Shown here piece by piece: positions 6,521 through 57,212 of a stretch of 64,000 nucleotides of DNA. Each line of letters starts with the position of its first letter. Within the stretch, counting starts at the first letter, position 1. Both the position numbers and the translations under genes were made by a program. Under the pieces are notes generated by a model that was given only the letters and a program-made list of their open reading frames with translations, had not been told where the DNA came from and did not search any database. The DNA comes from an uncultured Candidatus Saccharibacteria bacterium (GTDB taxonomy: Bacteria > Patescibacteriota > JABMPQ01 > JAQVVF01): positions 535,020-599,019 of the forward strand of contig CAZNOH010000001.1 of assembly GCA_964574655.1 (NCBI GenBank), in the 5' to 3' direction.

Positions 6521-6616
6521 CAAATAAACGTACGAATAATGCAAATGATACGAATTACGAATCGACGAATTTGCAATTCGCAACATTCGCATTATTCGTA
6601 TTTTCATTCGTATTTT
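6521..6616. repeat. ACGAAT-word palindromic intergenic element
   Basis: Inverted arms built from acgaat/attcgt words around a tcGACGaattt centre; related blocks at about 12160-12200, 24925-24990 and 27995-28065. Confidence 0.5.
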
Positions 6617-6617
6617 G

Positions 6618-7496
6618 TTAAAATAATGTTTTTTCGTTGGCAATTTTTATCAAATACTGGCCATACTGATTTTTGCTAAGAGGTTCAGCTAATTTTAGCA
6701 ATTGTTTTTTATTAATATAGCCATTGCTGAAAGCAATTTCTTCAAGACATGAAACTTTTAGTCCTTGTCTTTTTTCAATAGTTTGAATGAAATTTGATGC
6801 ATCTAAAAGACTTTCATGAGTGCCGGTATCTAACCAAGCGAATCCACGTCCTAGCATTTCTAGTTTTAATTTTTTTTCATTCAAATATAATCTGTTTAAA
6901 TCTGTTATTTCCAACTCACCTCTTGGCGATGGTTTTAATGATTTAGCTTTTTTAACTACGCTATTATCGTAAAAATAAAGTCCGGTAATTGCATAATTTG
7001 ATTTTGGATGTTCTGGTTTTTCTTCAATGCTCAAAACTTTGCCTTTTTTATCAAATTCAGCGATACCATATCTTTCTGGATCGTTAACATAATAGCCAAA
7101 AATTACTGCACCTTTTTTTATGCGAGCTGCTTTTCTCAGCATATCTTGAAAACCGTGACCATAAAATACATTATCGCCTAAAATTAGACTGACACTATCT
7201 TTGCCGATGAATTTTTCACCAATTATAAATGCTTGCGCCAATCCATCTGGAGATGGTTGAATTGCATAAGAAATTTTTAGGCCAAACTTTTTTCCATTGC
7301 CTAATAAATCTTTATAAGTACTGATGTCTCTTGGAGTTGAAATGATTAAAATTTCGCGTATCCCTGACAGCATTAAAATAGACAAAGGGTAATAAATCAT
7401 CGGCTTGTCGTAAATCGGCATGATCTGTTTTGAGATGCTCTGGGTGAGCGGATATAATCTTGTTCCTGATCCTCCTGCTAGAATAATGCCTTTCAT
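6618..7496 (-). CDS. rmlA: glucose-1-phosphate thymidylyltransferase
   Basis: [17 protein letters not shown]-terminus characteristic of RmlA/RfbA. Confidence 0.85.
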
Positions 7497-7518
7497 ATAT
7501 TTAGTGTTATCGCTAAAA

Positions 7519-7650
7519 ATTCAAAACTCTAAATCCTAAATTCTAAATAAACTCAAATTTCCAAAATCAAAATGCTAAACTTGACGATGGTTTTCTTTAT
7601 TTTGAATTTAGAATTTATAATTTATTTAGAGTTTAGGATTTAGGATTTTC
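7519..7650. repeat. long imperfect palindromic element (CTAAAT/ATTTAG-word family) overlapping the rmlD 3' end
   Basis: Left arm aaactctaaatcctaaattctaaataaactcaaatt pairs with right arm aatttagaatttataatttatttagagtttaggatttagg; homologous copies at about 22134-22280 and 42086-42199. Confidence 0.55.
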
Positions 7651-8472
7651 TAGGTAGTCTGCTAATGCTTCTTTCCAATTCCTCATTGCTGGTAATTTTG
7701 TATTAATAAGTGCCGAATATTCTGGTCTTTTAGCAGGTCTTGGAAATTCAGAAGTTTTGCATGGCGTAACTTTTATTTTTATGCCTTTAATTTTAAATAT
7801 TTCGTTAGCAAAATCAAACCATGTAGCCTCGCCTTCATTAGTGACATGATAGATGCCTGGCGCTAACTTTTTATCTAGAATTTCTTTTGTTCTTTTGGCT
7901 AAATCAACAGTATATGTTGGTTTGCCATGCTGATCGTTTACTACCTTCAAAGTATCATTTTCTTTGGCTAATTGCAACATTGTATCAACAAAGTTTTTGC
8001 CATTTTTGCCATAAAGCCAGGCTGTTCTTAAAATATAATATTTCTTACAATTATTTTTAATTAATTTTTCTCCCAATGCTTTTGTTTTGCCATAAGCATT
8101 GATTGGATCTACTTTATTATAGTTTTCACGATAGCCATCTTTTTTTAGGCCATTAAAGATATAGTCAGTACTATAATGAAAAAAAGGAATTTTTAATTTA
8201 TTGCAAGCCTTGGCTAAATTACCTGGACCAATACCATTTACTTTTTTAGCAATTGCTTTTTTGTCTTTGTCTTCACAGCCGTCAACATCTGTAAAAGCAG
8301 CACAATTGATTATTGCATCTGGATTTAATTTAGCAACAATTTTGTTGACCATTTTGGCATTGGTAATGTCTAGTTCCTCGCGATCATATTTAATTAACTC
8401 GTTATCTTTTTCTAGTAAGACGCATAAATCTTTACCTAGCATGCCTCGAGCACCGGTTATTAATATTTTCAT
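7633..8472 (-). CDS. rmlD: dTDP-4-dehydrorhamnose reductase
   Basis: MKILITGARGMLG N-terminus, length and position between rmlA and rmlB. Confidence 0.8.
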   Translation of the reverse strand: MKILITGARGMLGKDLCVLLEKDNELIKYDREELDITNAKMVNKIVAKLNPDAIINCAAFTDVDGCEDKDKKAIAKKVNGIGPGNLAKACNKLKIPFFHYSTDYIFNGLKKDGYRENYNKVDPINAYGKTKALGEKLIKNNCKKYYILRTAWLYGKNGKNFVDTMLQLAKENDTLKVVNDQHGKPTYTVDLAKRTKEILDKKLAPGIYHVTNEGEATWFDFANEIFKIKGIKIKVTPCKTSEFPRPAKRPEYSALINTKLPAMRNWKEALADYLENPKS

Positions 8473-8488
8473 AGTTTTTAATTAATCG

Positions 8489-8603
8489 TAAAAAACAAAT
8501 TCCAAATTCCAAACAAATTGCAAACCACAAATTACAAAAATTTTAGTAAATAGTTTTGTGTTTTGTAATTTAGAATTTGTTTGGTATTTGTGATTTGTGA
8601 TTT
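8489..8603. repeat. long imperfect palindromic element (CAAATT/ACAAA-word family)
   Basis: Arms aaacaaattccaaattccaaacaaattgcaaacc... and ...ggtatttgtgatttgtgattt; a related copy at about 28960-29088 shares ccaaattacaaaa. Confidence 0.5.
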
Positions 8604-8609
8604 CGAAAA

Positions 8610-9626
8610 TTATCTTTGGACATATTGCTTTTTGTAATAATTCAAGTACTCACCAGTCTTAATTTTTTTCCACCAATCTAAATTATTTTTGTACCAAGAA
8701 ATAGTTTGAGCAATACCTGAATCAAAAGAATACATAGGCTCCCAGCCTAATTCTGCTTTTATTTTTGCAACATCAACTGCGTAACGGCGATCATGACCAG
8801 CGCGATCTTTGACATATTCAATTGATTTTTCGTCTTTATTGCAAGCGCTAACGATTCTTTTTGTTAAATCTAAATTTGGAATTTCTGGATTTTGATTTGC
8901 ACCAATATTATAAATCTCTCCGTCCTTGCCCTTATGCAAAACTAAATCAATCGCAAAACAATGATCATCAACGTGCAACCAATCACGAATTTGCTGACCA
9001 TCGCCATAGACAGGGACAGTCTTGCCTTCTAAAAGATTTGTAATAAATAATGGAATAATTTTTTCTGGATATTGGTAAGGTCCATAATTATTAGTGCATC
9101 TTGTAATCATTACTGGCAAGTTGTAAGTTCTGCTGAATGCTAAAACTTGCAAGTCTCCGCCAGCTTTTGAGGCAGCATATGGTGATGACGGCCTTAGAAG
9201 ATCTGTTTCTTTGGCAAATCCACCATTATCAAAATCACCATAAACTTCATCTGTTGAAATTTGAATATAGCGCTTTATATTATGATCTTTGACAGCATTA
9301 AGTAAAATGTGAGTGCCAAAAACATCCGTATTAATAAAATCACCAGGATTCATAATTGACCGGTCAACATGCGTCTCTGCGGCAAAGTTAATGATGCTAT
9401 CTGGCTTTTGGACTGAAATTAAACTATTGACTAATTTGTCATCAGCAATATCACCTTTGAAAAATTGATAACGAGGATCTTTATCAATGCCTTTTAAATT
9501 TTCAAAATTACCAGCATAAGTAACTTTGTCAAAATTTACAATTTGATAACTTTCATATTTTGCAAGCATGTAGCGAATAAAATTGCTACCGATAAAACCT
9601 AGACCTCCTGTAATTAGGATTTTCAT
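8610..9626 (-). CDS. rmlB: dTDP-glucose 4,6-dehydratase
   Basis: GGLGFIGSNF Rossmann motif, YAASKAGGD catalytic region, length about 340 aa. Confidence 0.85.
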   Translation of the reverse strand: MKILITGGLGFIGSNFIRYMLAKYESYQIVNFDKVTYAGNFENLKGIDKDPRYQFFKGDIADDKLVNSLISVQKPDSIINFAAETHVDRSIMNPGDFINTDVFGTHILLNAVKDHNIKRYIQISTDEVYGDFDNGGFAKETDLLRPSSPYAASKAGGDLQVLAFSRTYNLPVMITRCTNNYGPYQYPEKIIPLFITNLLEGKTVPVYGDGQQIRDWLHVDDHCFAIDLVLHKGKDGEIYNIGANQNPEIPNLDLTKRIVSACNKDEKSIEYVKDRAGHDRRYAVDVAKIKAELGWEPMYSFDSGIAQTISWYKNNLDWWKKIKTGEYLNYYKKQYVQR

Positions 9627-9648
9627 AATATTAAATTAGTTTTTGTTT

Positions 9649-9777
9649 AATAAATAATTACCAAGAAACAAGATACAAACAAATTAGAATATTCAATAAT
9701 CAAACCTTTTCGACGGACGAGTTTGGTTATTTTAATTTGAAATTTGTTTGTTTCTTGTCTCTTGGTTATTTATTTTA
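9649..9777. repeat. long palindromic element, CCAAGAAACAAG family
   Basis: ccaagaaacaagatacaaacaaatt ... aatttgaaatttgtttgtttcttgtctcttgg with a central caaac-cttttcgacggacgag-gtttgg mini-hairpin; a half copy lies at 52382-52465. Confidence 0.6.
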
Positions 9778-10185
9778 TAATACTTTTTTAATTTTCTTAA
9801 TAATTTTTTCAGCTTCTGTTGCTCGGTATCCTTGTCTTTGTGGCCAAAGCTTTAAACCATCTTTCGCTAATCTTGGAATAACATGAAAATGGACATGATT
9901 AATTTTTTGGCCAGCAACTTTGCCATTATTTATGCTCAAGTTAAATCCTTTAACTTTCAGGCTTTTCATAATTGCCTTGCCGACTTTTTTAGAAACTAAA
10001 ATCATTTCTGACAATACTTTGTCTTGAACATCAACCATTGTATCAAAATGCTTTTTAGTGACAACTAAAATATGTCCAGGATTTACTGGCATAATATCTA
10101 AAATTGCCATCAAATTTTTATTCTCAAAAATGATGTCTGATGGAATTTCCTTTTTTGCTATTTTACAAAAAATACAATCTTTCAT
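9775..10185 (-). CDS. HIT-family (histidine triad) nucleotide hydrolase/transferase
   Basis: HVHFHVIPR histidine-triad motif near the C-terminus. Confidence 0.7.
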   Translation of the reverse strand: MKDCIFCKIAKKEIPSDIIFENKNLMAILDIMPVNPGHILVVTKKHFDTMVDVQDKVLSEMILVSKKVGKAIMKSLKVKGFNLSINNGKVAGQKINHVHFHVIPRLAKDGLKLWPQRQGYRATEAEKIIKKIKKVL

Positions 10186-10188
10186 AAA

Positions 10189-10668
10189 TTATAATTTTGC
10201 CCAATTAAAACCAATCTTTGGATCATTGTGCGGGATTCTTTGTTCGTCTGGCTTTTTAGGATTATACGGTCTCGTTGTATGATAAAAAAGCAAAACTGGT
10301 TTTCTTCCTTGCGCTTTATAGCCATGAGCAACGCCGATTGGAATTAAAACTAGCTTTGGATCTTTTTCTGCATTGCATTCGATGATTTGAGTATTACCAA
10401 AAGTTTTTGATTTTTTGCGAGTGTCATATAAAACAATAGTTGCCTTACCTGTTGCAAAAAACCAAAGATCGTCTTGTTTTTTGTGCCAGTGAAAAGCTTT
10501 GATTGTGCCTGGGTGCGCAACTGTAAAAGTTGTTTGACCAAACTTGGTTAATAACTTTTCATCTGCTCGTAGAATTTCCATTAAATGCCCTGCCTTTACT
10601 TTTTTCTGATCTAAGTCTGGCTGATCTTTCCAAATTTTTATTTGTTTGATTCTCACTCCGCTTATCAT
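10189..10668 (-). CDS. rmlC: cupin, dTDP-4-dehydrorhamnose 3,5-epimerase-like
   Basis: Cupin core with FHWHKKQ, IPIGVAHGY and DPKIGFNW resembling RmlC GLHFQ / IPPGFAHGF / DPELGIDW; follows rmlABD in the same orientation. Confidence 0.55.
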   Translation of the reverse strand: MISGVRIKQIKIWKDQPDLDQKKVKAGHLMEILRADEKLLTKFGQTTFTVAHPGTIKAFHWHKKQDDLWFFATGKATIVLYDTRKKSKTFGNTQIIECNAEKDPKLVLIPIGVAHGYKAQGRKPVLLFYHTTRPYNPKKPDEQRIPHNDPKIGFNWAKL

Positions 10669-10982
10669 AACATTTGACAGTTAATAGTTGACAATTAACA
10701 ATTAAATAAACTGCTAATGTTGCTGTTAACCAAATTTTATTTTCTTATAACTTATTCAGCCATGTTTTAGCTTATTTAAAGTATAAAACATATTTATCAA
10801 CAGGGCTAGATTATTTTTCATTATTCTTCTTTTTTAATTCTCGTGTAATATAAAAGCAGGGTGACATAGAAGCGCCACACCTGCTTTAAGGAGATGAACT
10901 CGATTTTGGAGTTTATCTCCTGAAATATAATTTTAATACTTTAAACTTAAAATTAGCTTAAAATTACATTTCAGGAAATAAT

Positions 10983-12161
10983 CTAAATTTCTATTTTACG
11001 TAAATTAAAAGATAACTCTTCTCTATTTTGAAGAGTTTTTTCATATATAATTTCTGTTTCTAAACTTAGGATATCCCAATTATAATTCTCTAGAGCATAA
11101 GCTTTAGCTTTTTCGCCTTTTTCAATTATCAAATCTGTTCTTTTATTTAAGATTTCTAATTTTGAAGCAAGGTCAGAAATATTTTTGTTCATAAATAAGT
11201 AACCTAATCCTGCGAATGCTTCAATGTTTTCTGGAATATTAGAAACTAGAACACATCTTCCATGGCTCATTGCTTCTAAGACAGTAGTTGGCAAACCTTC
11301 AGCTTCTGAAGGCTGTACGTAAAGATAGGCTTTTTTATAAAGCATATGTAAATCTTTGCCAAATACAGCACCGGTTAAAATAATGTTTGGATTGCTTCTA
11401 GCTTTTTCTTTAATGAATTTTACATAATCATCTGTGCATGCTGAATCACCGACAATAACTAATTTTTTGTCAGTTTTAATTTTGTTGAATGCATCAATAA
11501 GATAGTGAATGCCTTTGTGTTTAACTAAACGGCCAACAGTCAAAATGTATTTGTTCTGTTCTAAATTTAATTTTTCTAAAACATCACTTTCTTGATTTTT
11601 AAGATCTAAAAAGTTAATTCCGTTTGGAATATAAACTGTCTTGGTGTTGTATCTTTCTTTGGCAATTTGCCTTAGAATTTTTGAGACAACAATTGTCTGA
11701 TGAGCAAATTTGCATATTGCCCATTCACCAAATTTTAAATATTTGCGAGCTACGAAGCCCCATTTTTGATGATATTGATCTTGGCAGTGAAATGTTGAGA
11801 TAATTTTTGATTTTGTAAATAATCTAGCAATAAAAGCTAGCGTTGATGGTCCAACACCTTGATAATGAATAATATCGTATTTTTGAAATAAAGCGTGAAA
11901 TGTAGAAATTATGGTATGCGAAATCGCGTCAAAATTTTTTGAGTTGATTGAAGGCAAGGAAATTAATCTGACGTTTTTGTAGAATTTAATGTTTGGGTCA
12001 GAATAATTTGGTCTTGAGTAAGCAAAAACTTCATGGCCTTGCTTGGCCAATCTAGTTGCTAAATCTTCTACGTGTCTTTCAACACCGCCCGATTTAGCTG
12101 GAAGTCCTTTTTGTCCGATAAATGCGATTTTCATAAATATAATACGAATATACGAATGCAT
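10983..12161 (-). CDS. glycosyltransferase family 4
   Basis: N-terminal GT4 fold (KGLPAKSGGVERHV) and a C-terminal EAEGLP-type motif. Confidence 0.7.
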   Translation of the reverse strand: MHSYIRIIFMKIAFIGQKGLPAKSGGVERHVEDLATRLAKQGHEVFAYSRPNYSDPNIKFYKNVRLISLPSINSKNFDAISHTIISTFHALFQKYDIIHYQGVGPSTLAFIARLFTKSKIISTFHCQDQYHQKWGFVARKYLKFGEWAICKFAHQTIVVSKILRQIAKERYNTKTVYIPNGINFLDLKNQESDVLEKLNLEQNKYILTVGRLVKHKGIHYLIDAFNKIKTDKKLVIVGDSACTDDYVKFIKEKARSNPNIILTGAVFGKDLHMLYKKAYLYVQPSEAEGLPTTVLEAMSHGRCVLVSNIPENIEAFAGLGYLFMNKNISDLASKLEILNKRTDLIIEKGEKAKAYALENYNWDILSLETEIIYEKTLQNREELSFNLRKIEI

Positions 12162-12503
12162 GCTAATCTACGAATATGCAAATATTCTGATACAAATTTA
12201 GCCCTGCATAACATATATTGAATTTTTGGGTTATTTTGTAAGTCTTATTACAGACCTATAAATATAGCACTTTTTGTATGTTCCGTCAAGGCTTTTTTGT
12301 AAATCTTTGTTTTTTTGGCTTGTTTAAGACATTTCCATTTGGACTGAATATCTTAGCAAATTGTAGTTCTAGTGTCAAGGTTTACTGTGGATAAAACACT
12401 TTAACTAATAAAAAAAGCGTACAAAAGTTGTACGCGATGAACAAGATTGTTATTCAGCAACATTTTTATATAACATATTTATATCTTGCTAATTTCATTT
12501 TGT

Positions 12504-14360: not shown

Positions 14361-14432
14361 GTCATCTCGAGCGAAGCGAGAGATCCCGTAATTCTATAAA
14401 TTCACGGAATTCCTCACTTCGTTCGGAATGAC
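14361..14432. repeat. palindromic repeat GTCATCTCGAGCGAAGCGAG...CGTTCGGAATGAC (REP/MITE-like)
   Basis: Roughly 30 bp imperfect inverted arms; second copy at 19831-19907; partial cgaagcgaag motif also at about 38215-38235. Confidence 0.55.
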
Positions 14433-16066: not shown

Positions 16067-16150
16067 TGGTGCCCGGAGCGGGATTCGAACCCGCATGTCT
16101 TGCGACGGAGGATTTTAAGTCCCCTGCGGCTACCTTTTCGCCATCCGGGC
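16067..16150 (-). tRNA. tRNA-Leu (anticodon TAA), long variable arm, CCA encoded
   Basis: Reverse complement folds as a cloverleaf: acceptor GCCCGGA/TCCGGGC, anticodon loop CTTAAAA, long variable arm, T-arm GGTTCGAATCC. Confidence 0.8.
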
Positions 16151-16554: not shown

Positions 16555-16691
16555 AAAAAGCATTGGAGTGAGCACAAAAAAAGAGCCCACTGAAAGTGAA
16601 CTCTTGAAGGAACGAACGCTGAAAGAACTGGAATTGTTGGAGAGAAGCCGCACCCGACGCACTTGCGTTTGTCGGATGGGAACTGAAGATT

Positions 16692-17276
16692 CTAGGGGAG
16701 CTTGAGGTAGTGGCCGCCGGAGGGATCCGACATGATCTTGAGACCATCGTAGACGTTGCATCCGACGACGGTCAGCCAGTCTTCGCCACTCCGAGGCCAC
16801 GCGGAATCGACACCAGCAGGAATCATCGCGCAAGCACCGTTGTTCGCCGTCTGCAGAGCGCAGACCGGCTCGACCCCAGGAGGCATGCACCCGAAGGTCC
16901 ACGCACCGAGGCCGACGATGTTGCCGCAGATCTGGCCGTTGTCGATCCACACCTCGCATATATCGGTGTCGGGCGGATTGTTGGGCACGCACTGGGTCTG
17001 GCCCGCCTGGCACTCGTTGCCACCTTCGCCTTCGCCCTCGCAGCCGCAGTCGCACCCCTCGCCCTCGCCTTCGCCACCGTCCACCACGCCACTGTCCGTC
17101 TCACCCTCGCCCTCGTTGCCCTCACCTTCTCCTTCTCCCTCACCTTCACCCTCGCCCTCGACGCCCTCACCCTCGCCCTCGTTGCCGTTGTCCTCCATGT
17201 CCTTCTCGCGCAGGGCGCAGTTCGTGTTGATGATCGTCAGGCCGAACAGGATCCACATCGTCGCGCGCTTCATCAC
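16692..17276 (-). CDS. secreted protein with (EG)n repeat and Cys-rich C-terminal domain, in the high-GC island
   Basis: GGAGGAGG RBS; N-terminal signal peptide; GEGEGEGEG tract; 14 cysteines; GC-rich codon usage unlike the host. Confidence 0.5.
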   Translation of the reverse strand: MMKRATMWILFGLTIINTNCALREKDMEDNGNEGEGEGVEGEGEGEGEGEGEGNEGEGETDSGVVDGGEGEGEGCDCGCEGEGEGGNECQAGQTQCVPNNPPDTDICEVWIDNGQICGNIVGLGAWTFGCMPPGVEPVCALQTANNGACAMIPAGVDSAWPRSGEDWLTVVGCNVYDGLKIMSDPSGGHYLKLP

Positions 17277-17351
17277 AGCACCTCCTCCTCTCTCGTTGAC
17301 TCACCCGAACCGGGCGCTCGACTCCTTGCGAAGCCGAGCGCCCGGACGACT

Positions 17352-18416
17352 CTAGAACCGCACGCCGAAGTTACCGGCGCCGGACTTGATCATCTGCCAC
17401 CCACGCCGGTCCTCCACGTCACCCTTGAGCTCGCCACGCATCTCGTAGATGAACGACCAGCCCTCGAGCTTCGCGAGTTCTCCGACGAATCCCACGCCAC
17501 CACCGACCTCACCGCGACCGAAGTACATGTGGGTGTCGAGGTCGAACGTCCTGCCGATCAGACAGAAGTGTGGCTTGATCCACTGCTTCCAGTCGTACTC
17601 GGCGTTCAGCTCGAACCCGGCAGCACCGACCTCGTTGGCCTTGCCGTACTGCGCGCCCACCCCGATGGTCCAGCTCTCGCTGACCGGGAAGTTGACACGG
17701 AGCATGGCTCCGACGAAGTTGTCGCGCTCGGGGCTCCAGAGGTACTGTCCGACCAGGTCGTAGGTGATGTTCACCTTGGCCTCGCCGTCGTCACCCCTGC
17801 AATCCATCACGTCGCACTTCGTGTCCTTGTTCACGTCCTCATCACCATCACACTTGTAGTTTTCATTGCTGTCCCAGCACTGGACCGACGGCTTGGGCAG
17901 GCAGTCTTCCACGAGCCGGATGATAGCACCGCGCTGCCCTTCCTGGGCTCGCGTGAACATCGTCCCCTCGCGGATTCTGTTGCCGTTGACACCGATCTCC
18001 ATCAGCTTGTTCATCATGTAGCTCGCCCGCGCCCGCGCCCGAACAGCCCTGAGCGGATCCTGACCCCCAGCAGCGCGCACCTCTGCGGTGCCGCCGAACG
18101 GGGTCACGTCCTCCACCCCGCTGACTTCCAGGCATCCGAACTGAGCGGTATCCAGAGTAGCCTTGGCGCCGTTGAGGGCGTCGGTCCACTCCGTCTTCCA
18201 GCTCACGTTCTGCCCGGTCAGGTCGGCGTTGAGGAACGTCCAGATCTTCTTCTGCGCGGTTGCCCGGTCTTCCTCGGCCACGGGGGCCTCGGGAGCCGGC
18301 TGCGCGTAGGCGATCTGTCCCTCCTCGTCGTCCATCCAGAAGTAGTTGTAGGGGTTGATGTTGAAGAAACCGCAGATGAAAACCACCACCATCAGCCAGT
18401 TGATCTTGCGCTTCAT
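17352..18416 (-). CDS. outer-membrane-protein-like protein (OmpA-like segment, Asp-rich Ca-binding-like motif, C-terminal Phe), in the high-GC island
   Basis: RBS GAGGAGG; signal peptide; segment RAVRARARASYMMNKLMEIGVNGNRIR resembles the OmpA C-terminal domain; CDGDEDVNKDTKCDVMDCRGDDGE; alternating beta-strand-like C-terminal half ending GVRF. Confidence 0.45.
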   Translation of the reverse strand: MKRKINWLMVVVFICGFFNINPYNYFWMDDEEGQIAYAQPAPEAPVAEEDRATAQKKIWTFLNADLTGQNVSWKTEWTDALNGAKATLDTAQFGCLEVSGVEDVTPFGGTAEVRAAGGQDPLRAVRARARASYMMNKLMEIGVNGNRIREGTMFTRAQEGQRGAIIRLVEDCLPKPSVQCWDSNENYKCDGDEDVNKDTKCDVMDCRGDDGEAKVNITYDLVGQYLWSPERDNFVGAMLRVNFPVSESWTIGVGAQYGKANEVGAAGFELNAEYDWKQWIKPHFCLIGRTFDLDTHMYFGRGEVGGGVGFVGELAKLEGWSFIYEMRGELKGDVEDRRGWQMIKSGAGNFGVRF

Positions 18417-18674
18417 CGTCTTGCCCTCCTCATCCTCGTTCTCTCGTGTTGTAGGGTCCTAACCCTGTTGTCGGAATCTGTAGAAAGTAACATTGAATAC
18501 TAGCACAATTGAAAAAATTTGTCAACAGGATTTGATGGTTTTACCTTATATAAGCCAAAATTTAACTCTAATTTGTTATAATTATGTTTATTTGGTAAAA
18601 TAGAAGCATTAAGTTATAAGCTATAAGCTATATTTTCTTATTGCTTACAGCTTTTAGCTATAGCTCAAAAAAAC

Positions 18675-19830: not shown

Positions 19831-19907
19831 TGTCATCCCGAACCGCTGTGAGGGATCCCGTGTTTTTAGAACAATCACGGGATTCCTCGTTGCGACTCGG
19901 AATGACA
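19831..19907. repeat. palindromic repeat TGTCATCCCGAACCGCTGTGAGGGATCCCGTG...CACGGGATTCCTCGTTGCGACTCGGAATGACA
   Basis: Second copy of the family seen at 14361-14432. Confidence 0.55.
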
Positions 19908-20783: not shown

Positions 20784-20913
20784 CGTTTTTTAGCAGATAT
20801 CTAGTTATTTTGTTTGAATTAAGCCCTAATTGCTCAATTGCTAAATGGCTGAATTGTTAGCTATAATTAACGTTAAACAATTTAACAATGGGGCAATTTA
20901 GCAATTACGTGAT

Positions 20914-21669: not shown

Positions 21670-21849
21670 AATGTTTTTCTAATTTGATTATATCAGTATT
21701 TATCTGCATCCGTCTATAAATTTTTTAACGACGCAGAAAAACGCAAAAGCTAACGCAGAAAGACGCAGAAACCTATTTATATTATTTTATTGCAAATTAA
21801 AAAAGAGCTTTACGCTCTTTTTTATGATTACACAGAAATGGTGTTGAAA

Positions 21850-22133: not shown

Positions 22134-22280
22134 CGAAAACTCTAAATCCTAAACTCTAAACTCTAAACAAACTCAAAATTCCAATATCCAAATTTCAGGA
22201 AACTCCGAAGCCATGCTTTTGAATTTTATATTTTAGTAATTTGTATTTATTTAGAGTTTAGTATTTAGAGTTTAGGATTT
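22134..22280. repeat. long palindromic element, CTAAAT family copy
   Basis: aaactctaaatcctaaactctaaactctaaacaaactcaaaattcc ... atttagagtttagtatttagagtttaggattt. Confidence 0.5.
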
Positions 22281-24915: not shown

Positions 24916-25063
24916 AAATTTTATTTTTTATTTTTAAATATATAATACGAATGACGATACAAATAATGCGAATGTTACGAATTACGAATACGTCAAATAT
25001 TTTTTGTTTAGTTTAGTATAGCATAATTTTTTGTTTTTGGGCAAATAAAAAAGTGAGAGTAAC

Positions 25064-25423: not shown

Positions 25424-25458
25424 GTTTTCCTCCTGTCTCAAGGTACGGCCAACTCTTT

Positions 25459-32759: not shown

Positions 32760-32787
32760 AAATTTAAATTAAATTATTTTTAATTTT

Positions 32788-40749: not shown

Positions 40750-40813
40750 AATTAACAGTTAATGGCTAACAGCTAACAGAAATCTGCTAATTGCTAACTG
40801 CCAAGTGTTAATC
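40748..40813. repeat. TAACAG/GCTAAC-word palindromic intergenic element
   Basis: cataattaacagttaatggctaacagctaacagaaatctgctaattgctaactgccaagtgttaatcg; related copy at 10667-10732. Confidence 0.45.
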
Positions 40814-41307: not shown

Positions 41308-41410
41308 ATTTCTACTTGGCTTCAACGCAGAATTACGCGGAATTGAACGCGGAATGTGCGGAAAATGCTTCTGCGTTTTTCTGCGTTAGCTTCTGCGTTT
41401 TTTTGCGTAA
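41308..41410. repeat. ACGCAGAA/TTCTGCGTT tandem-word repeat block fused to a partial REP end (ttctacttggctt)
   Basis: ttctacttggcttcaacgcagaattacgcggaattgaacgcggaatgtgcgg...ttctgcgtttttctgcgttagcttctgcgtttttttgcg; related blocks at 21728-21772, 36747-36790 and 44796-44812. Confidence 0.5.
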
Positions 41411-42004: not shown

Positions 42005-42085
42005 ATATTTGTTTTTGTTTTAATTAGTTAGATTAGTAAATATAATTTAACATTATTTATTAGAATAAGCAAGATTTTTTGTTAT

Positions 42086-42199
42086 AAAATCCTAAATCCA
42101 AAATTCTAAAACCAAATTTTAAGACAATGACGTCTGCTTTAGATTTTTTATTTTGAAATTTGAATTTATTTAGAATTTATAATTTGGGATTTAGAATTT
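42086..42199. repeat. long palindromic element, CTAAAT family copy with an aatGACGtctg centre
   Basis: aaaatcctaaatccaaaattctaaaaccaaatttt ... gaaatttgaatttatttagaatttataatttgggatttagaattt. Confidence 0.5.
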
Positions 42200-44721
42200 C
42201 ACAACGTCTTTACTCCTGCTACTTCTAATGCTTTTTTTTCAGATTCAGCAATTTGAGCTCTCTCCATTATCTCGCCTGCAACGATTGACTTACTGCGTCC
42301 ATATTGTAAGCGTGATAATTCTCTAACTGCATTCGCGATCTTCATGTTTGCACCTTCGGCTGGCGGATATGTTGCCATTGTAAATGCTTTTGATTTTGCG
42401 CTATCAATCATTAATCTAAGATAAGCGTGATATTTCTCAATATTAATAACATCATTTTCAGTGAAAACTGGCTCAAGCTCCTTGGCTACGATTTCTGCAT
42501 CTTCAACACCAACACGAAATGAGGTAAACGTACCGACGTTTCCAAAAACTGCATCTCTTATTTTTTCTTCAAGCTGTTTTATGTACTGGTGAGCGACGAT
42601 CAAATTGAGTTTGTATTTTCTAGCTTCAGACAAAATTGAAGCAAAGCTATCTGTAGCAAAATTTTGGAACTCATCAACGTATAAATAAAAATCCTTTCTT
42701 TCAGATTCTGGAATATCAGCGCGTGAATACGCTGCCATCTGAATCTTAGAAACAATAATCAAACCTAACAAAGACGAATTCGTCTCACCGATCTTGCCTT
42801 TAGAAAGATTTACAAGCAGAACTTTGCCTTCATCCATTATTTTTCTTAAATCAAACGACGAATGGCTCTGACCAATTATATTTCTCATCATTTCATTTTC
42901 CACAAAACGACCAACTTTAGAGATTATGTAACCCAACATTTCTGATTTATGAAAGTCTGAAGTTTTTGCCATTTCTTTTTCCCAGAAAGCTCGAACAACT
43001 GGATCTTTTAATTTTGCAATCCATTCTTTTGCATATTCAGTGTCTGTGAACATTCTCGGAATTTCTGCTAAAGTGCCTGGATTTTCTTTATCAGACATCA
43101 AAGTCAGCATAACATTTCTCATTTGGTGTTCGAACATCGGACCGATCATCTCTGGCGGAAATAATTTGAAGAAAATTTGCATCATCTCCTGTACAGCAAA
43201 ATCTTTTTGATCTTCTGTTTTAAATTCAAGCATATTTAAACCCATCGGACGATCAATATCAAAAGGTTCAAACAAAATAACATCGTCAACTCTTTCTTTT
43301 GGAATGAAAGGCAAAATACTTTCAACTAAATCACCATGCGGATCAACAACGCAGATGCCTTTGCCAGCTTTGATATCCTGGATAATCATATTTTGCAAAA
43401 GATTGGATTTACCAACACCGGTTTGACCAATAACATACATATGCCTTCTTCGATCATCATCTTTGATGTGAATAGGAGTTTCGATTCCACGATAGACATT
43501 TTTTCCTAATAGCAAGCCTTGTTTTGGAGTATTGTGCGGAGCTGGAGCATCACGAGCCAATAGCCAATGGACATTTGGAGTTTCGGTGAATTTTGTTGGA
43601 AGATGGAATATTGATGCTAACTCTTCAGTATTAAGAATACACTTTTTTTTATTGTCAAAACTGCGGAATATAAAATCCTGAATTAATTTTGATAAGCGAA
43701 CTTTGCGCTTAAAGAATTTGTTTGATGATGGGTCTGCATATTGCGAAAAAGCGCCAATAATGCTTTCTAAAGTTTCTTCTGCTTTAGTCTCTTGATCTGA
43801 GCAAGCGATGATTCTAATATTTGTGAAAAAGCCGAGCTTGTTTGATTTTATTTCTAAAGCTTTGATTCTTTCTTGGACCAAAGGTGACAAATTTGGCAGT
43901 CCTCCTGATTGTGATTGTTCTGGTCCAGACATAGGGTTGACTGCTTGTTCTAGAACACTTCTTTCTTCTTCTTTTTTTCGACGGAAAAGTTTGCCAATAA
44001 GATTTGCAGAGGCATGCTCATATGTTTCGCCACGTTGCATTTTTCTAGCAATGTGCGGTCCTTCTTTCATCCAAGACTTGCCTGCAGGACGAATTAGATA
44101 TTGAATTGCTGCACCTTCTGTTTTTTCATTTAATTTACTCAAAGCATTTGTAATGCCGTTCAATGGATCTGATTCAATGGTCTGATAGGTCTTGATTGGC
44201 AGAAAATCTTGGTTTTCAGTTGTTAACATGGCGCCTCTAATCTTGCACTTTGGAGTAAAAATATTATACTCACCCTCTTCAGAAATGAAAGCTTTAGGAA
44301 ATTGAGAGTGGATAACTTTTTCAACATATTGTTGCAATCTCCTTGGCACTGCAACATAAAAACGAATTTCTCCTTTTAACGAGACTATTTCAAAAGATAT
44401 ATATTCTTTTCCATAAAAACTTGCCAACAAACCCTTAGTAACTGATTCAATAGAATGAAGATTGGCAAACATAGTTTCAGCAACAGAAATCATTTCTTTT
44501 TCTTCTTTCTTGGCTTCTTCAGCAACTGGCTTGGTTTCTTTTGGAACAGAAATGAGCAAGGTAACCATATCAAGAGAATGCGGTATTATGTTTCTTTTTT
44601 TGAGAGCAGAAATTACTAAAAGATATAATAATATAGCCAAAGCTAAAAGAGTTATTACAAAAATAATGCTAACAAACGGTTCAGAACTAGAACTGAATAA
44701 ATTAATATAATTACTTATCAT
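42199..44721 (-). CDS. membrane-anchored VirD4/TraG/TrwB-like (type IV coupling protein / DUF87-type) P-loop ATPase
   Basis: N-terminal TM helix; Walker A VIGQTGVGKSN; Walker B region DEFQNF ... LIVAHQ. Confidence 0.55.
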   Translation of the reverse strand: MISNYINLFSSSSEPFVSIIFVITLLALAILLYLLVISALKKRNIIPHSLDMVTLLISVPKETKPVAEEAKKEEKEMISVAETMFANLHSIESVTKGLLASFYGKEYISFEIVSLKGEIRFYVAVPRRLQQYVEKVIHSQFPKAFISEEGEYNIFTPKCKIRGAMLTTENQDFLPIKTYQTIESDPLNGITNALSKLNEKTEGAAIQYLIRPAGKSWMKEGPHIARKMQRGETYEHASANLIGKLFRRKKEEERSVLEQAVNPMSGPEQSQSGGLPNLSPLVQERIKALEIKSNKLGFFTNIRIIACSDQETKAEETLESIIGAFSQYADPSSNKFFKRKVRLSKLIQDFIFRSFDNKKKCILNTEELASIFHLPTKFTETPNVHWLLARDAPAPHNTPKQGLLLGKNVYRGIETPIHIKDDDRRRHMYVIGQTGVGKSNLLQNMIIQDIKAGKGICVVDPHGDLVESILPFIPKERVDDVILFEPFDIDRPMGLNMLEFKTEDQKDFAVQEMMQIFFKLFPPEMIGPMFEHQMRNVMLTLMSDKENPGTLAEIPRMFTDTEYAKEWIAKLKDPVVRAFWEKEMAKTSDFHKSEMLGYIISKVGRFVENEMMRNIIGQSHSSFDLRKIMDEGKVLLVNLSKGKIGETNSSLLGLIIVSKIQMAAYSRADIPESERKDFYLYVDEFQNFATDSFASILSEARKYKLNLIVAHQYIKQLEEKIRDAVFGNVGTFTSFRVGVEDAEIVAKELEPVFTENDVINIEKYHAYLRLMIDSAKSKAFTMATYPPAEGANMKIANAVRELSRLQYGRSKSIVAGEIMERAQIAESEKKALEVAGVKTL

Positions 44722-45338: not shown

Positions 45339-45497
45339 AATATAAAATATTAACTTATAATTATATTAACATATTTTTATTATGCAACAAATATTTTATT
45401 TTTTTAATGTTTTGTTATATAATGTTTCTATGAATTAGTTTTCTAATAATTTTATAATTAAAAGATTTAAAAATCAAATTTAAAATCAAAAAATAAT

Positions 45498-49206: not shown

Positions 49207-49300
49207 TGACTCACACTAATACCACACGAATTACACTAATGCTTTTTTCGAATAAGCTATTTGTAAATTTGGTTAAAAAATGATAATTTATAAATATAGT

Positions 49301-49412
49301 TTCTACTTGGCTTTAGCCAAAGGGTCGAAGAGCTTTAGCTCTTTTTATGGCTAAAGTTCATTAAAAATTTTGCAATCCAAAATTTTTAATCCCCAGCTAA
49401 AGCTGGGTAGAA
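49301..49412. repeat. REP/MITE-like element copy 2 (full length), immediately upstream of cysS
   Basis: ttctacttggctttagccaaagggtc ... ccccagctaaagctgggtagaa. Confidence 0.6.
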
Positions 49413-49425
49413 ATCTAAAAAGACT

Positions 49426-52367: not shown

Positions 52368-52381
52368 AAAATTGCTAATTA

Positions 52382-52465
52382 CCAAGAAACAAGAAACAAA
52401 CAAATTAAAAATTAAAATATTCAATAACCAAACTTGACGAGTTTGAATATTATAATTTGGTTATT
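52382..52465. repeat. half copy (left arm plus centre) of the CCAAGAAACAAG palindromic element
   Basis: ccaagaaacaagaaacaaacaaatt ... caaacttgacgagtttg; the matching right arm is absent. Confidence 0.5.
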
Positions 52466-52499
52466 AAATATTGTTTTAATCAATTATTAAACTAAAAAC

Positions 52500-52793
52500 A
52501 TGTTCGAACAATTAAAAAATTTGGCAAGTTTAAGAAAGCAAGCTAGTGAAATGAAAAAACAATTAGAATCTGAATTAATCACTGGCGAGGCATTAAATGG
52601 TCAAGTAAAAATTTCGATGGATGGCAGTCAGCAAATTAAGGAAGTTTTTATTGATGAATCATTATTGGTGTCTGGAAATCAAGACAAATTACAGAATGCA
52701 ATTAAAGATGCTTTTTCAAAAGCTAATAAAGAGTTGCAGATGATGATGGTTAGAAAAATGCAAGCTGGTGAAATCCAAATGCCGCAATTATAA
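52500..52793 (+). CDS. ybaB: YbaB/EbfC-family nucleoid-associated protein
   Basis: About 97 aa; MFEQLKNLASLRKQASEMKKQLE start typical of YbaB; lies upstream of recR as in the conserved dnaX-ybaB-recR arrangement. Confidence 0.8.
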   Translation: MFEQLKNLASLRKQASEMKKQLESELITGEALNGQVKISMDGSQQIKEVFIDESLLVSGNQDKLQNAIKDAFSKANKELQMMMVRKMQAGEIQMPQL

Positions 52794-52899
52794 ATATGAT
52801 GCCAATATGCGAATCTTATGCCAATTATGCTAATTGCTAATGCTATTATTCGCAATTTGTAGATTGGCATAAAATTAGTAGATTTGCATCATTTTTTTT

Positions 52900-53502
52900 A
52901 TGAATATTTTACCAATTCCCCTACAAAATTTAATTATAGAATTCTCAAAACTTCCTGGAATAGGTCCAAAAACTGCTTCTAGGTTGTCTTTTTATTTGTT
53001 AAAATCAAAATCTGTTGATGTTGAGGCTTTTGCCAGAGCTTTGTTTGAACTTAAAAAAACAGTAACTTTTTGTTTAAATTGCTATAATCTGACTGAAAAA
53101 AATCCTTGTCCAGTATGTTCTGATATGAGGCGAGATAAATCATTGATTTGCATTGTTGAAGAACCAATGGATATTGTTGCTATAAATTCTTCTGGTGAGT
53201 TTAATGGACTTTATCATGTTTTGCATGGTTCGATTTCTCCGATAAATAATGTTGGACCAGAAGATCTTAAAATAAATGAATTATTAGGACGCTTAAAACA
53301 AGATTCTGGAATTAAAGAAATTATATTGGCAACTAATCCAAACTTAGAAGGCGAGGCTACAGCAATGTATATTGCAAAATTAATTAAGCCTCTGGGCATA
53401 AAAACAACAAGAATTGCTCGCGGTCTTCCTTCTGGCGGAGATTTGGAATATGCTGATGAAGTAACATTAAGCAATGCAATGAAAGGCCGGAAAGAATACT
53501 AA
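52900..53502 (+). CDS. recR: recombination protein RecR
   Basis: C4 zinc finger CLNCYNLT..CPVC, Toprim domain, 200 aa. Confidence 0.9.
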   Translation: MNILPIPLQNLIIEFSKLPGIGPKTASRLSFYLLKSKSVDVEAFARALFELKKTVTFCLNCYNLTEKNPCPVCSDMRRDKSLICIVEEPMDIVAINSSGEFNGLYHVLHGSISPINNVGPEDLKINELLGRLKQDSGIKEIILATNPNLEGEATAMYIAKLIKPLGIKTTRIARGLPSGGDLEYADEVTLSNAMKGRKEY

Positions 53503-55208: not shown

Positions 55209-55218
55209 ATTGCTCATT

Positions 55219-55245
55219 AACAGACTATCCAGTCTGTTTTTTTTT
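55219..55245 (+). terminator. intrinsic terminator AACAGACT-atcc-AGTCTGTT plus T9, overlapping the convergent gene's stop
   Basis: Read directly. Confidence 0.55.
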
Positions 55246-56328
55246 GTAAAAAATTACTAGTAATATCGCAAGAATAGCCATCAATCCGATAAGGATAATG
55301 AAAGCTAGTATCTTTTCCTTTCCCTGAATAAATAGCGCAAAAAGCCCAAATAATGCCGAAATTGACCATAAGAAGATAACAGCACTCCGTTGCGAGAATC
55401 CTAAATCATAAAGACGAAAATGGAGATGCTGGCGATCAGCTTGAAAAGGAGATTTATGTTTAAATATTCTTCTCAAAATTACCCAGATTACATCAAGAAT
55501 TGGAATACCCATAATTAATAATGCTGTTGCTATTTTTCCGCCAGAAATTATGGCTAAAGCTCCTAGCATAAAACCGATAAAAGTACTGCCACCTTCTCCT
55601 AAAAATATTTTGGCAGGATGAAAATTAAAAATTAAAAATCCTAAAGATGCACCAGCTAAAATTATGCAAAGCAAGGCAGTTTCTGGTTGCATAACTTTTG
55701 TGCTTAAGCTTAAGAAAAATAAAATTATAGATGCAATTACTGATATTCCAGGAACAAGTCCGTCCATGCCATCTAAAAACTTTGTGGTATAGATCATGCC
55801 TAACAGCCAAATCATGGTGAAGATATCGGCAAAAACTGTAAAAAAGTAAGGAATATTATTAATCGTAAAAAGTCTGATTCTTATTTCATCTAAATTGATT
55901 GTATTACCAATTGGATTGCTGATAAAAGTAATACCAATGCCGGAAATTATAACAACAAGACAAGAAATAATTGGAAAAATAAATTGTTGTTTTGGACTTA
56001 AATTGTATTTGTCATCTATGATACCGCCAATAATTAAAATAAGTCCGCCAAGCGCTAAACCTAAAATATATTTTGGAAGCATATAACCGCTAAAGAAATC
56101 GCGATCAATTAAAATAAAATATCCTAGAGTAATAAAAAAGCCGATAAAAACGGCTAAACCTCCCATGAGCGGGATATTACTTTTGTGAATTTTTCTTTCC
56201 TTATTCGGGCGATCTACTATCTGGTATTGTAATGCTAATTTCCTGATTAAATATGTGAATAATAAAGTTATCAAAAAAGCCAAAGCAAAGGCTAAAATAA
56301 AATTAAATTTGGTGAATAAAATCTCCAT
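55225..56328 (-). CDS. MraY/WecA-family polyprenol-phosphate HexNAc-1-phosphate (or MurNAc-pentapeptide) transferase
   Basis: 10-11 TM helices; HKSNIPLMGG and DGMDGL motifs shared by the MraY/WecA family; adjacent to murI and alr. Confidence 0.65.
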   Translation of the reverse strand: MEILFTKFNFILAFALAFLITLLFTYLIRKLALQYQIVDRPNKERKIHKSNIPLMGGLAVFIGFFITLGYFILIDRDFFSGYMLPKYILGLALGGLILIIGGIIDDKYNLSPKQQFIFPIISCLVVIISGIGITFISNPIGNTINLDEIRIRLFTINNIPYFFTVFADIFTMIWLLGMIYTTKFLDGMDGLVPGISVIASIILFFLSLSTKVMQPETALLCIILAGASLGFLIFNFHPAKIFLGEGGSTFIGFMLGALAIISGGKIATALLIMGIPILDVIWVILRRIFKHKSPFQADRQHLHFRLYDLGFSQRSAVIFLWSISALFGLFALFIQGKEKILAFIILIGLMAILAILLVIFYKKKQTG

Positions 56329-57119
56329 TAATCAAGACTTACTTGTTTGACTTTTATTTTTTGATCTAATATCTTTTCCGAGAATTCTTGAAATTTGAAT
56401 GGAATGTCACTGACAAAAAATTTGTGCTTTTTACTTTTTACTAATCTTTTTTCAATTACTGGATGATTTTTTAAGAATAAATCAACTTCTTTTGCCACTT
56501 CTTCTCCTGGATCAATGATATTAATTTTTCTTTTGATCGCCTTTTTAATTGCTTCTTTTGCTAAAGGATAATGAGTGCAAGCTAAAACTAGAGTATCAAT
56601 TTTTTCTTTTCTAAAAGGCTTTAGATAAAACTTCACAATCTTTTTAGTTTCTGAACGATTGATCCAGTCCTCCTCAACTAAAGGCACAATCAATGGACAA
56701 GCCTCGGTATAAACTTTGATATCTTTGTTTAATTTCTTTAAATAGTTTTCATGGACCTGGCTTGCAATTGTCGCCCTTGTTCCGATAATGCCGACTTTCT
56801 TGTTTTTTGTTATTCTCTCTGCTTTGATTAAACCTGCTTTAACAACATCAAAAATTGGAGTTCCTGGAAACTTTTCACGCAATTCTTTTGAAGCAACTGC
56901 TGAAGCAGTATGGCAGGCAATAACAATTATCTTCGCGCCATTTCGCAATAAAAATTTTGTATCCTGGATAGCATACTTAATAATCGTTTCTTTGCTTTTG
57001 TTGCCATAAGGAGTCCTGGCAGTATCACCAAAATAAATAATTTGATATTCTGGTAGCTTTTTTATAATTTGGCGAGCAACTGTCAGTCCGCCGATGCCGG
57101 AATCGAAAATACCTATCAT
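56328..57119 (-). CDS. murI: glutamate racemase
   Basis: IGIFDSGIGGLTV N-terminus and the two catalytic Cys regions (ACHTAS, ACTHYP). Confidence 0.8.
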   Translation of the reverse strand: MIGIFDSGIGGLTVARQIIKKLPEYQIIYFGDTARTPYGNKSKETIIKYAIQDTKFLLRNGAKIIVIACHTASAVASKELREKFPGTPIFDVVKAGLIKAERITKNKKVGIIGTRATIASQVHENYLKKLNKDIKVYTEACPLIVPLVEEDWINRSETKKIVKFYLKPFRKEKIDTLVLACTHYPLAKEAIKKAIKRKINIIDPGEEVAKEVDLFLKNHPVIEKRLVKSKKHKFFVSDIPFKFQEFSEKILDQKIKVKQVSLD

Positions 57120-57120
57120 A

Positions 57121-57212
57121 GTTTAATTTTAAATTTTGAATTTAAAATTTTAAATTAATTTCGAAATTAGAATTTTAAAATTTATTTGAAATTTATAATT
57201 TAAAATTAGAGA
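57121..57212. repeat. AATTTTAAA-word palindromic intergenic element
   Basis: aattttgaatttaaaattttaaattaatttcgaaattagaattttaaaatttatttgaaatttataatttaaaatt. Confidence 0.45.

Follow-up and report, generated by a model that had tools for sequence, protein, structure and literature searches.

Closest described systems

ERIC/IRU, Correia/CREE, RUP and BOX are bacterial miniature inverted-repeat transposable elements (MITEs) that form whole-length hairpins in transcripts. MITEs of the ERIC/Correia type are non-autonomous imperfect palindromes of 100–150 bp that insert between genes transcribed together, vary from strain to strain, and can serve as terminator, promoter, or RNase processing sites; Correia elements duplicate TA. 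In eukaryotes, Foldback transposons carry long terminal inverted repeats made of short tandem subrepeats, and are kilobase-scale and transposase-associated. Here we analyze a 64-kb stretch of a Patescibacteria genome (contig CAZNOH010000001.1; hereafter the window, meaning the whole 64 kb), in which AT-rich palindromes occupy intergenic spacers. Their likeness to Foldback transposons is one of architecture only. Among known systems they come closest to MITEs that fold over their whole length, as ERIC and Correia do, and to the hairpin-forming doublets (REPINs) of repetitive extragenic palindromic (REP) sequences.

The AT-rich palindromes share with ERIC/Correia-type MITEs their size, imperfect palindromy, insertion between co-transcribed genes, and polymorphism, but they lack a target-site duplication (TSD), have arms built as heptamer arrays, sit at or over stop codons, and occur in a host from the Candidate Phyla Radiation (CPR). 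With the REPIN/REP-RAYT system (Bertels & Rainey; PMC3116915, PMC3337134), in which RAYT denotes the REP-associated tyrosine transposase, they have in common that they are ∼100-nt intergenic hairpin repeats at gene 3′ ends, with several families per genome, a variable yet pairing inner part, 5′ A runs and 3′ T runs, no TSD, and a RAYT with HUH motif and Tyr in the genome; in REPINs, the flanking 5′ A runs and 3′ T runs have been read as co-option for termination (PMC3337134). Unlike REPINs, their arms hold no REP unit (short imperfect palindrome plus GTAG box), consist of 7-nt words, and do not flank the RAYT gene. The genuine REP/RAYT pair of this genome is a separate GGCTTTAGCC...GGTAGAA family.

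Bidirectional intrinsic terminators resemble the elements in post-stop position and in their A-rich 5′ and U-rich 3′ sides, and the elements and canonical terminators are mutually exclusive in the window; terminator stems, however, are 5–14 bp and GC-rich, whereas those of the AT-rich elements are 40–55 bp, AU-rich, mismatched, unconserved, and found inside an operon too. Integron attC sites are likewise imperfect palindromes (57–141 bp) placed right after cassette open reading frames (ORFs) in co-oriented arrays, with structure conserved over sequence, but the genes flanking our elements are housekeeping ones (BipA, DnaB, RecR, Alr). An attC identity was rejected, as no element carries both RYYYAAC/GTTRRRY cores and Pfam scans of the window gave no integrase. 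TIGR arrays are defined as tandem repeat/stem-loop units with box C/D motifs beside a Nop-domain Tas gene (PMC12045711); the elements described here are single and dispersed, one per junction, and Pfam scans gave no Nop-domain protein, which excludes TIGR-Tas arrays. The combination of heptamer-array arms, a strict stop-codon niche with swapping types, a conserved short centre, and a CPR host is unusual.

AT-rich palindromes in intergenic spacers

The source genome is represented by a 654-kb contig, and our element census covers the window (∼32% GC, most genes on the minus strand, non-coding share ∼16–19%). When the best ungapped inverted-repeat score of each intergenic spacer (n = 41) was set against 100 shuffled versions of that spacer that kept its dinucleotide composition, ∼18 of the 41 exceeded all of their own shuffles (z 5–15.5), and 21 of the 23 window palindromes scoring ≥ 13 fell in non-coding DNA. 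The main copies also fold stably as RNA, with minimum free energies (MFE) of −30 to −49 kcal/mol and z-scores of −5.2 to −8.9 (0/200 shuffles equally stable). An original prediction, made from the sequence of this stretch alone, had described the spacers as long imperfect palindromes, and this is borne out: z exceeds 5 in ∼18 spacers, RNA folds reach z −5 to −9, and shuffled sequence of the same composition did not give equally long palindromes. Chance or low complexity as their origin is ruled out by the shuffle tests on palindrome score, blastn pairs, and RNA fold. Known RNA families were also discarded as candidates, the Rfam matches in the window being two tRNAs only.

Elements are 60–150 bp long, with inverted-repeat arms that are 74–83% complementary and stems of 40–55 bp that are 8–29% GC and rich in mismatches. 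According to Tandem Repeats Finder, the arms are period-7 tandem word arrays (ATTTAGA ×7.6, AAACTCT ×4.6, AAAAAAC ×8.6, and AATTTAA ×12.6). In all low-complexity elements the 5′ arm is A/C-rich and the 3′ arm T/G-rich, with 43–74% A and 0–6% G in the 5′ arms of the core families; for a palindrome, such A/C-to-T/G polarity is identical from either strand. The predicted hairpin of 100–150 bp at each copy applies to the main copies, while 12160–12200, 24925–24990, and 10667–10732 are single-arm arrays or weak folds (z −0.6 to −0.9). Three further predicted hairpins held in part: the copy at 52382–52465 belongs to its family and has only a decayed hairpin (52378–52480, RNA z −2.0), the block at 57121–57212 is a palindrome that is weak as RNA (57120–57218, z −2.4), and the hairpin at 40748–40813 is real, yet only 60 nt (40748–40815, z −3.8).

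Sequence families and a shared loop motif

An all-vs-all blastn comparison of the spacers gave 29 region pairs with matches, against 1.5 in shuffles, and nine pairs with ≥ 50 bits, against none, so that copies are clearly more alike than random AT-rich DNA. An arm-by-arm score matrix contains a clear block of three CTAAAT copies (starting at 7523, 22137, and 42081), an ACGAAT block (two copies, including the one at 6509, and the half copy at 24940), and a CCAAGAAACAAG block (9656 and 52376, with left arms 97% identical over 32 nt). The predicted CTAAAT, ACGAAT, and CCAAGAAACAAG word families were thereby recovered; a single CAAATT/ACAAA family was not, since the elements at 8490 and 28958 score 19–27 against each other, near the between-family background of 8–24.

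The original prediction also pointed to a TGACG-type loop centre. Within ∼540 nt of palindrome centres, YGACG occurs eight times against 0.68 expected (P = 6.5e-7), located in five AT-rich and two GC-richer elements. The loop TTGACG was considered as a −35 box and rejected, because no −10 box lies at the right distance from it and its orientation is independent of gene direction; recognizable promoters here are of the form TGNTATAMT and all lie outside the elements.

Turnover at orthologous junctions

Close relatives available for comparison were L030 (BipA 86% identical; JGI), L112/L113 (NCBI GCA_028699085.1), L114–L116 (JGI), and L117–L119 (Logan), the RmlB of L112–L119 being 92–93% identical to that of the window. 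Non-coding flanks align at ∼85–95% between the window and these relatives, and the palindromes themselves do not. After the YkuD-domain gene, the window has a ∼135-nt CTAAAT element right after the TAA, whereas L030 reads TAA-TTGCTA followed by the same downstream sequence and is thus empty. After DUF5656, the AT-rich palindrome of the window is replaced in L030 by a GC-richer palindrome of another type, type C (TGTCATTCTGAGCC...), with identical flanks. After BipA, both genomes carry a long CAAAT-type palindrome, the two not being alignable, while the next promoter is ∼90% identical.

The same variability is seen in the rml region. Between RmlA and the next gene, the window has an ACGAAT element, L114 an empty 15-nt spacer, L117 a GCAAAT/GTAGATT element, and L112 a short TAACAG/GCTAAT palindrome; between RmlD and RmlA, the CTAAAT element of the window corresponds to 36 nt with a Shine-Dalgarno sequence in L114, a type C palindrome in L117, and TTTTCAATT in L112. 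The CCAAGAAACAAG element between HIT and RmlB (9656–9770) stands where L112, L114, and L117 have a short GC hairpin, and the L114 rml junctions contain no long palindrome at all. Conversely, the epimerase-to-MetK spacer is empty in the window (20 nt) and in L112 (21 nt) and holds a palindrome in L114. At the Alr-to-MurI junction, the window has an AATTTTA palindrome and L124, a relative with an orthologous RAYT gene, a type C copy. A family can also recur at non-orthologous sites: the 3′ arm of the element at 52787–52901 matches L117 7249–7289, part of a palindrome at the L117 RmlA junction, with 90% identity across 41 nt (E = 9e-11), and has no match in a 1-Mb CPR control.

Since different families occupy the same site, the same family occurs at different sites, and some sites are empty, the sequences must have been copied between loci and then lost. 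That the elements are homologous and copy-propagated, not chance low complexity, is therefore supported by sequence comparison, in agreement with what had been predicted: indels with conserved flanks, junction-specific family differences, and one family at non-orthologous loci all point that way. Arm scores are 21–33 within a copy and 17–35 between copies of a family; such equal likeness is predicted by independent decay from near-perfect ancestral palindromes and not by selection for a hairpin, and gives no sign of selection for pairing. The MFE difference between sense and antisense strands lies anywhere between −13 and +11.5 kcal/mol, its sign being inconsistent, which rules out an RNA-level G-U asymmetry. 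Among the three CTAAAT copies, five of 36 pairs show double changes, a count made unreliable by the repeated-word register.

Placement at gene ends

Thirteen of 15 elements start between −17 and +14 nt relative to the end of the upstream stop codon, and nine of the 15 overlap that stop codon or the last codons, as the original prediction had it for the hairpin arms. The RmlD of the window, for example, runs as LENPKS* into the CTAAAT words, and its relatives are three residues shorter. Seven spacers are roomy enough for the element to lie elsewhere, and in six of them it adjoins the stop codon; none of five divergent promoter spacers contains an element.

Distribution across Patescibacteria

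The window BipA/TypA is 70–74% identical to proteins of Patescibacteria (Parcubacteria and Magasanikbacteria). As a control, we used 80 CPR loci fetched by BipA (49–73% identity; 1.0 Mb), including loci of 29–36% GC. No AT-rich palindrome with arms ≥ 30 nt was found in these 80 loci, compared with ∼12 AT-rich ones (14 of any kind) in the window, which rules out a general CPR feature. AT-rich palindromes do occur in the L030, L112/L113, L114–L116, and L117–L119 relatives, and a more distant genome reached via its RAYT gene, L127, has one similar stop-abutting element. They are thus largely confined to this lineage. An assembly artefact is ruled out as well, because the same architecture was assembled independently in NCBI, JGI, and Logan data.

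A RAYT gene and its type B repeats

A 199-aa ORF at 60537–61136 (minus strand) encodes a RAYT-like HUH/Tyr transposase, as indicated by Pfam Y1_Tnp, motif conservation, and structural matching. It scores 24.1 bits for Y1_Tnp (cut-off 23) and 36.4 bits for NCBIfam REP_Tyr_transpos, below the cut-off of 80, as for a divergent member. Across 26 homologs, the NHxH motif (N59-H60-x-H62) and Y122 do not vary, and the AlphaFold2 model (pLDDT 88) has as its top PDB match 4ER8, the E. coli RAYT-REP hairpin complex (E = 3e-8). From motif and model, the ORF is a genuine RAYT and looks catalytically competent. In L124 the gene has the same chromosomal position (cytidylyltransferase upstream, SerS and Alr downstream) at 82% identity, as under vertical inheritance.

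The gene is bracketed on both sides by GC-richer palindromes, here termed type B, which consist of GGCTTTAGCC/GGCTAAAGCC mini-hairpins and a GGTAGAA box in inverted doublets, the arrangement of REPs and REPINs. One doublet (60429–60539; GGCTTTAGCC units, GTAGAA box) abuts the RAYT stop codon, the other lies at 61150–61262, and additional copies are at 32787–32880 and 49300–49413. Type B also flanks a second RAYT paralog of the same genome (L120), the L124 ortholog (82%), and the RAYT genes of L127 (62%) and L128 (60%). The RAYT and GGCTAAAGCC...GGTAGAA together make a textbook REP/RAYT pair by the definition of PMC3337134, apparently conserved across CPR. No AT-rich copy flanks the RAYT at the window, L120, L124, L127, or L128, and the REP/RAYT pair consequently does not explain the AT-rich families; judging by its flanks, the RAYT is cognate to the type B repeats rather than to them. 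The original prediction of a RAYT-like ORF as a possible cognate enzyme was hence right about the ORF and not about its link to these families. REP units (short palindrome plus GTAG-type box) are missing from the AT-rich arms, which are heptamer arrays without internal palindromes, the exception being 28004–28101. The literature we searched held no description of such AT-rich elements, nor of REPIN/RAYT systems, in Patescibacteria.

A near-identical 13-bp AT-only hairpin (ATTAAAAATTTTG-loop-CAAAATTTTTAAT) was seen at 49360–49390 and 61164–61194 and at L120 1–29, always adjoining a type B REP unit, in a mosaic like that of bacterial interspersed mosaic elements.

Origin of the AT-rich palindromes

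We cautiously favor reading the AT-rich palindromes as several related families of non-autonomous foldback repeats, MITE/REPIN-like, that spread by copying to numerous sites within a single Patescibacteria lineage and are at present in decay. In a compact genome, the bases just after a stop codon would be almost the sole insertion-tolerant place, so that elements would accumulate there, and the TAA-rich words could supply a new stop if an element landed a few codons early. Copying probably proceeded via a single-stranded hairpin intermediate, with catalysis probably provided in trans by an HUH-type enzyme recognizing the YGACG(A) centre, which contains G and C; this genome has genes for at least two HUH transposases of the RAYT type. 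In transcripts, the elements would form long A/C–G/U hairpins, which may attenuate or terminate between transcription units and may serve as processing or stability sites inside operons. Some attenuation, termination, or processing activity of this kind is possible, if somewhat doubtful, and RNA effects would be by-products, not the reason for the elements' existence.

Several observations weigh against mobile foldback repeats. The outermost pairs of 11 elements show no consistent direct repeat that would mark a TSD (one possible 9-nt TTATTTTAA repeat, in L117), and the elements share no consistent terminal motif. With no TSD, and no matching autonomous insertion sequence among the 60 window ORFs scanned, the elements have not been established as MITEs strictly speaking; of the predicted MITE-like nature, the small inverted repeats, dispersed copies, and insertion polymorphism stand, and the TSD does not. 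Each family is represented by 2–3 copies in 64 kb, copies diverge by 10–25%, so that no recent transposition is captured, and near-identical replicate strains and contigs are identical and hence uninformative, with no insertion event caught. Two features treated below, uniform arm polarity and mutual exclusion with canonical terminators, count on the same side, as do the enzymes: among 60 window ORFs scanned with Pfam, which include no DDE transposase, the sole transposase-like one is the RAYT flanked by type B, all five RAYT loci examined (100–51% identity to the window RAYT) have type B flanks only, and L128 combines a RAYT and type B with no AT-rich palindromes in 20 kb. The type B flanks of all five RAYT loci, the case of L128, and the lack of a REP unit in the AT-rich arms make it rather improbable that the elements are a divergent REPIN class moved by this genome's RAYTs, with the YGACG(A) centre or GTAGAT words as recognition site. 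Such a link would nevertheless fit a window RAYT with invariant HUH and catalytic Tyr, a fold closest to 4ER8, and a paralog elsewhere in the genome; a GACGA/CGACG centre common to AT-rich elements and two of four type B palindromes; the chimeric structure of 28004–28101, which joins CGAAT words to REP-like GGCTTAGGCC mini-hairpins; the stop-abutting A/C–G/T palindrome with nested GGTAGA mini-hairpin at the L127 RAYT locus; and the lack of a TSD, as expected for Y1 HUH transposition.

The elements could instead be the lineage's own intrinsic bidirectional terminators, or hairpins protecting mRNA 3′ ends, selected for structure and evolving in place. They start at the stop codon, fold very stably, and at BipA, DUF5656, and the YkuD-domain gene lie upstream of the next gene's conserved promoter; their A-rich 5′ arms and U-rich 3′ arms ending in U runs, uniform in polarity, recall A-tract/hairpin/U-tract terminators, and canonical GC-stem plus T-run terminators occur at 0 of 13 AT-rich junctions vs 16 of 27 other gene-end junctions (Fisher P = 3e-4). 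We nonetheless consider this origin unlikely, because the elements are not conserved and are dispensable at the junctions that are empty or differently filled in close relatives. Four of them lie within the rml operon, at junctions whose genes are 15–48 nt apart in L114, with no TGNTATAMT (extended −10) promoter at these four junctions, and efficient termination would silence the downstream genes; being intra-operonic, these four cannot be efficient terminators, and a terminator role, which the original prediction held probable alongside mobility, would be incidental. A consensus terminator scan, moreover, found no short GC-rich stem with U tract in the AT-rich elements, unrelated loci carry members of one sequence family, the arms of a single copy complement each other no better than different copies match, and folding energies of the two strands do not differ consistently. 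Local generation, whereby slippage of 7-nt words and hairpin-templated quasi-palindrome correction or elongation expand small hairpins, would suit arms that are both period-7 tandem arrays with matching heptamer numbers (3 + 3 at 7523–7649, 4 + 4 at 22137–22281), the existence of single-arm arrays, and words that differ from genome to genome. It is nonetheless less plausible still, given 90–97% identity over 32–43 nt between unlinked loci and genomes, which is beyond convergence, no excess complementarity within elements, and clean indel edges with no intermediate small hairpin. Least plausible are regulatory binding-site arrays in 7-nt register for a nucleic-acid-binding protein (e.g. a cold-shock-domain or nucleoid protein): the 7-nt periodicity is common to families with different words and a single-arm array is shared by the window and L030 in a 5′ untranslated region (UTR), yet no candidate protein was found, most orthologous sites do not keep the array, and this role would not need palindromy.

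A more speculative reading, which we regard as improbable, is that the elements are a hitherto undescribed kind of hairpin in which only the short GC-containing centre (YGACGA) is conserved, as the site that an HUH enzyme, for instance one of the CPR RAYT clade, nicks or recognizes, while the arms are free-running 7-nt arrays that grow by slippage, and that such hairpins home to, and replace, hairpins behind stop codons. Homing and replacement would account for four unrelated palindrome types swapping at identical junctions, and would amount to a system of mobile hairpins that replace terminators in ultra-small genomes.

CPR/Patescibacteria are usually described as streamlined and repeat-poor, and in this lineage the intergenic palindromes are of four kinds or more; if the window density holds genome-wide, the ∼650-kb genome would carry on the order of 100 copies. 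The elements turn over faster than nearby non-coding DNA, and have entered even an operon whose genes lie close together in a sister genome. They may offer a natural system for studying the persistence of selfish hairpins under genome reduction, their exaptation as terminators or RNA processing sites, and the action of RAYT-type HUH enzymes outside Proteobacteria. Palindrome junctions could also serve as hypervariable markers, and probably cause contigs to break when CPR metagenomes are assembled.

Individual elements of the window

Four elements lie in the rml region. The ACGAAT element at 6509–6622 fills the spacer from RmlA to a 453-aa gene (arms 6509–6562/6569–6622, 43/54 paired, z 10.9; MFE −49.2, RNA z −8.6), with its TCGACG loop at 6562–6567. 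The CTAAAT element at 7523–7649, in the RmlD-to-RmlA spacer and over the last five RmlD codons, has arms 7523–7573/7599–7649 (42/51 paired, z 15.5; period 7, 7.6 copies) and a TTGACG loop at 7581–7586. The RmlB-to-RmlD spacer holds a CAAATT element at 8490–8603 (z 10.5 for 8495–8598; RNA z −8.8), and the HIT-to-RmlB spacer the CCAAGAAACAAG element at 9656–9770, with loop TCGACGGACGA (z 12.6). A decayed CCAAGAAACAAG copy is found 3′ of DnaB at 52376–52485 (RNA z −2.0); its left arm and loop are 91–97% identical to 9655–9770, and its right arm is degraded.

The second CTAAAT-family element (CTAAAC/CTAAAT, 22137–22281) begins at the stop of the YkuD-domain gene (z 9.4 for 22137–22273; RNA z −7.4) and is missing in L030; the third, at 42081–42205, lies 3′ of a VirD4/TraG-like gene and has the centre ATGACGTC (z 6.5, RNA z −5.2). 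An element of ACAAAAA words at 28958–29097 extends over the last BipA codons, upstream of the next gene's conserved promoter (z 9.9 for 28972–29083). GCTAAT/CAATTG words make up the element 3′ of the DUF5656 gene (20827–20907; z 6.7, RNA z −3.3), where L030 has its type C repeat, and GCCAAT/GTAGATT words the one filling the ybaB-to-recR spacer (52787–52901; z 8.0, RNA z −4.5). A short TAACAG/GCTAAC hairpin (40751–40812, RNA z −3.8) fills the 58-nt GtrA-to-DnaX spacer. The ACGCAGAAA element at 41324–41408 (arms 16/19) is related to the word array at 21730–21775 (92.5% identity over 40 nt), and the AT-only palindrome of AATTTTA words in the Alr-to-MurI spacer spans 57124–57215 (z 5.5), with a type C repeat there in L124. 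The sole element adjoining a start codon instead of a stop codon, at 28004–28101, combines CGAAT words with GGCTTAGGCC-type mini-hairpins (35/47 paired, z 7.2, RNA z −5.8).

Related arrays and other hairpins

Two single-arm arrays lie on the minus strand: an ACGAAT half copy at 24940–24994, in the 5′ UTR of a DUF308 gene downstream of a TGcTATACT promoter and orthologous in L030, and an ATTCGTA/GTAGATT array at 12160–12200, at a gene start and with no hairpin (z −0.8). Along with 2918–2958, 21730–21775, and L114 5415–5460 and 11025–11063, they are non-palindromic word arrays of period 7–11, with words CGCTGATTTAA, GACGCAGAAA, ACGAAT, ATTAGAGA, and TCTAGAA, sited upstream of start codons or promoters.

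Type C (TGTCATYCYGARCSNNRGYGARGGATCCC...) is a third palindrome family, ∼50% GC and 75–100 nt long, located directly 3′ of stop codons. The window has a copy at 19831–19907 (TGTCATCCCGAACCGC...) and a second at 14361–14432, in the same stop-codon niche, and type C swaps with AT-rich elements between relatives, in which copies occur at L030 12519–12597, 18955–19032, and 20026–20124, L117 6190–6270, and L124 1–75 and 7985–8061. A fourth hairpin family is present in relatives (CGYAGGCGAGATTC-loop-GAATCTCGCCTRCG; L030 18064–18097, L114 5380–5410 and 15265–15300, L112 9965–9995, L117 4112–4145 and 4160–4195); its copy at the HIT-to-RmlB junction shows compensatory changes between L112 and L117, and the window lacks it there. 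At the stop codon of a GT4 glycosyltransferase gene, a non-repetitive 24/27-bp hairpin at 10910–10984 (AGTTTATCTCCTGAAATATAATTTTAA...) is kept in the window, L112, L114, L115, and L117–L119, and, unlike the repeats, looks like a selected structure.

Other features of the window

The content of the dTDP-rhamnose cluster (window 6500–10700, L112 8587–15844, L114 8587–15241) varies among close relatives: L112 and L114 have DUF6016, NUDIX, and HD-domain genes that the window and L117 lack, and the junctions that lost them are among the palindrome-bearing ones. A 125-aa ORF at 25064–25441, with no family match and not in the syntenic L030 stretch, has its own canonical terminator. Gene orientation changes from minus to plus at 45339–45497, with a sign change of the GC skew at about 45 kb; a replication origin at this 45.4-kb strand switch was considered and rejected, no DnaA-box cluster being found there.

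Adjoining tRNA-Leu (16067–16150), a 1.9-kb block at 16600–18500 reaches 55–73% GC with sharp edges; L112 and L114 do not have it here. A TTGACA-17-TAGTAT promoter (18525–18497, minus strand) and a terminator (16605–16581) belong to the block itself. Its ORF at 17352–18416 (minus strand, 354 aa) has an N-terminal hydrophobic segment and the end ...GNFGVRF, matches nothing in Pfam or Rfam, and looks like a gene for a secreted or beta-barrel-like protein gained by horizontal transfer.

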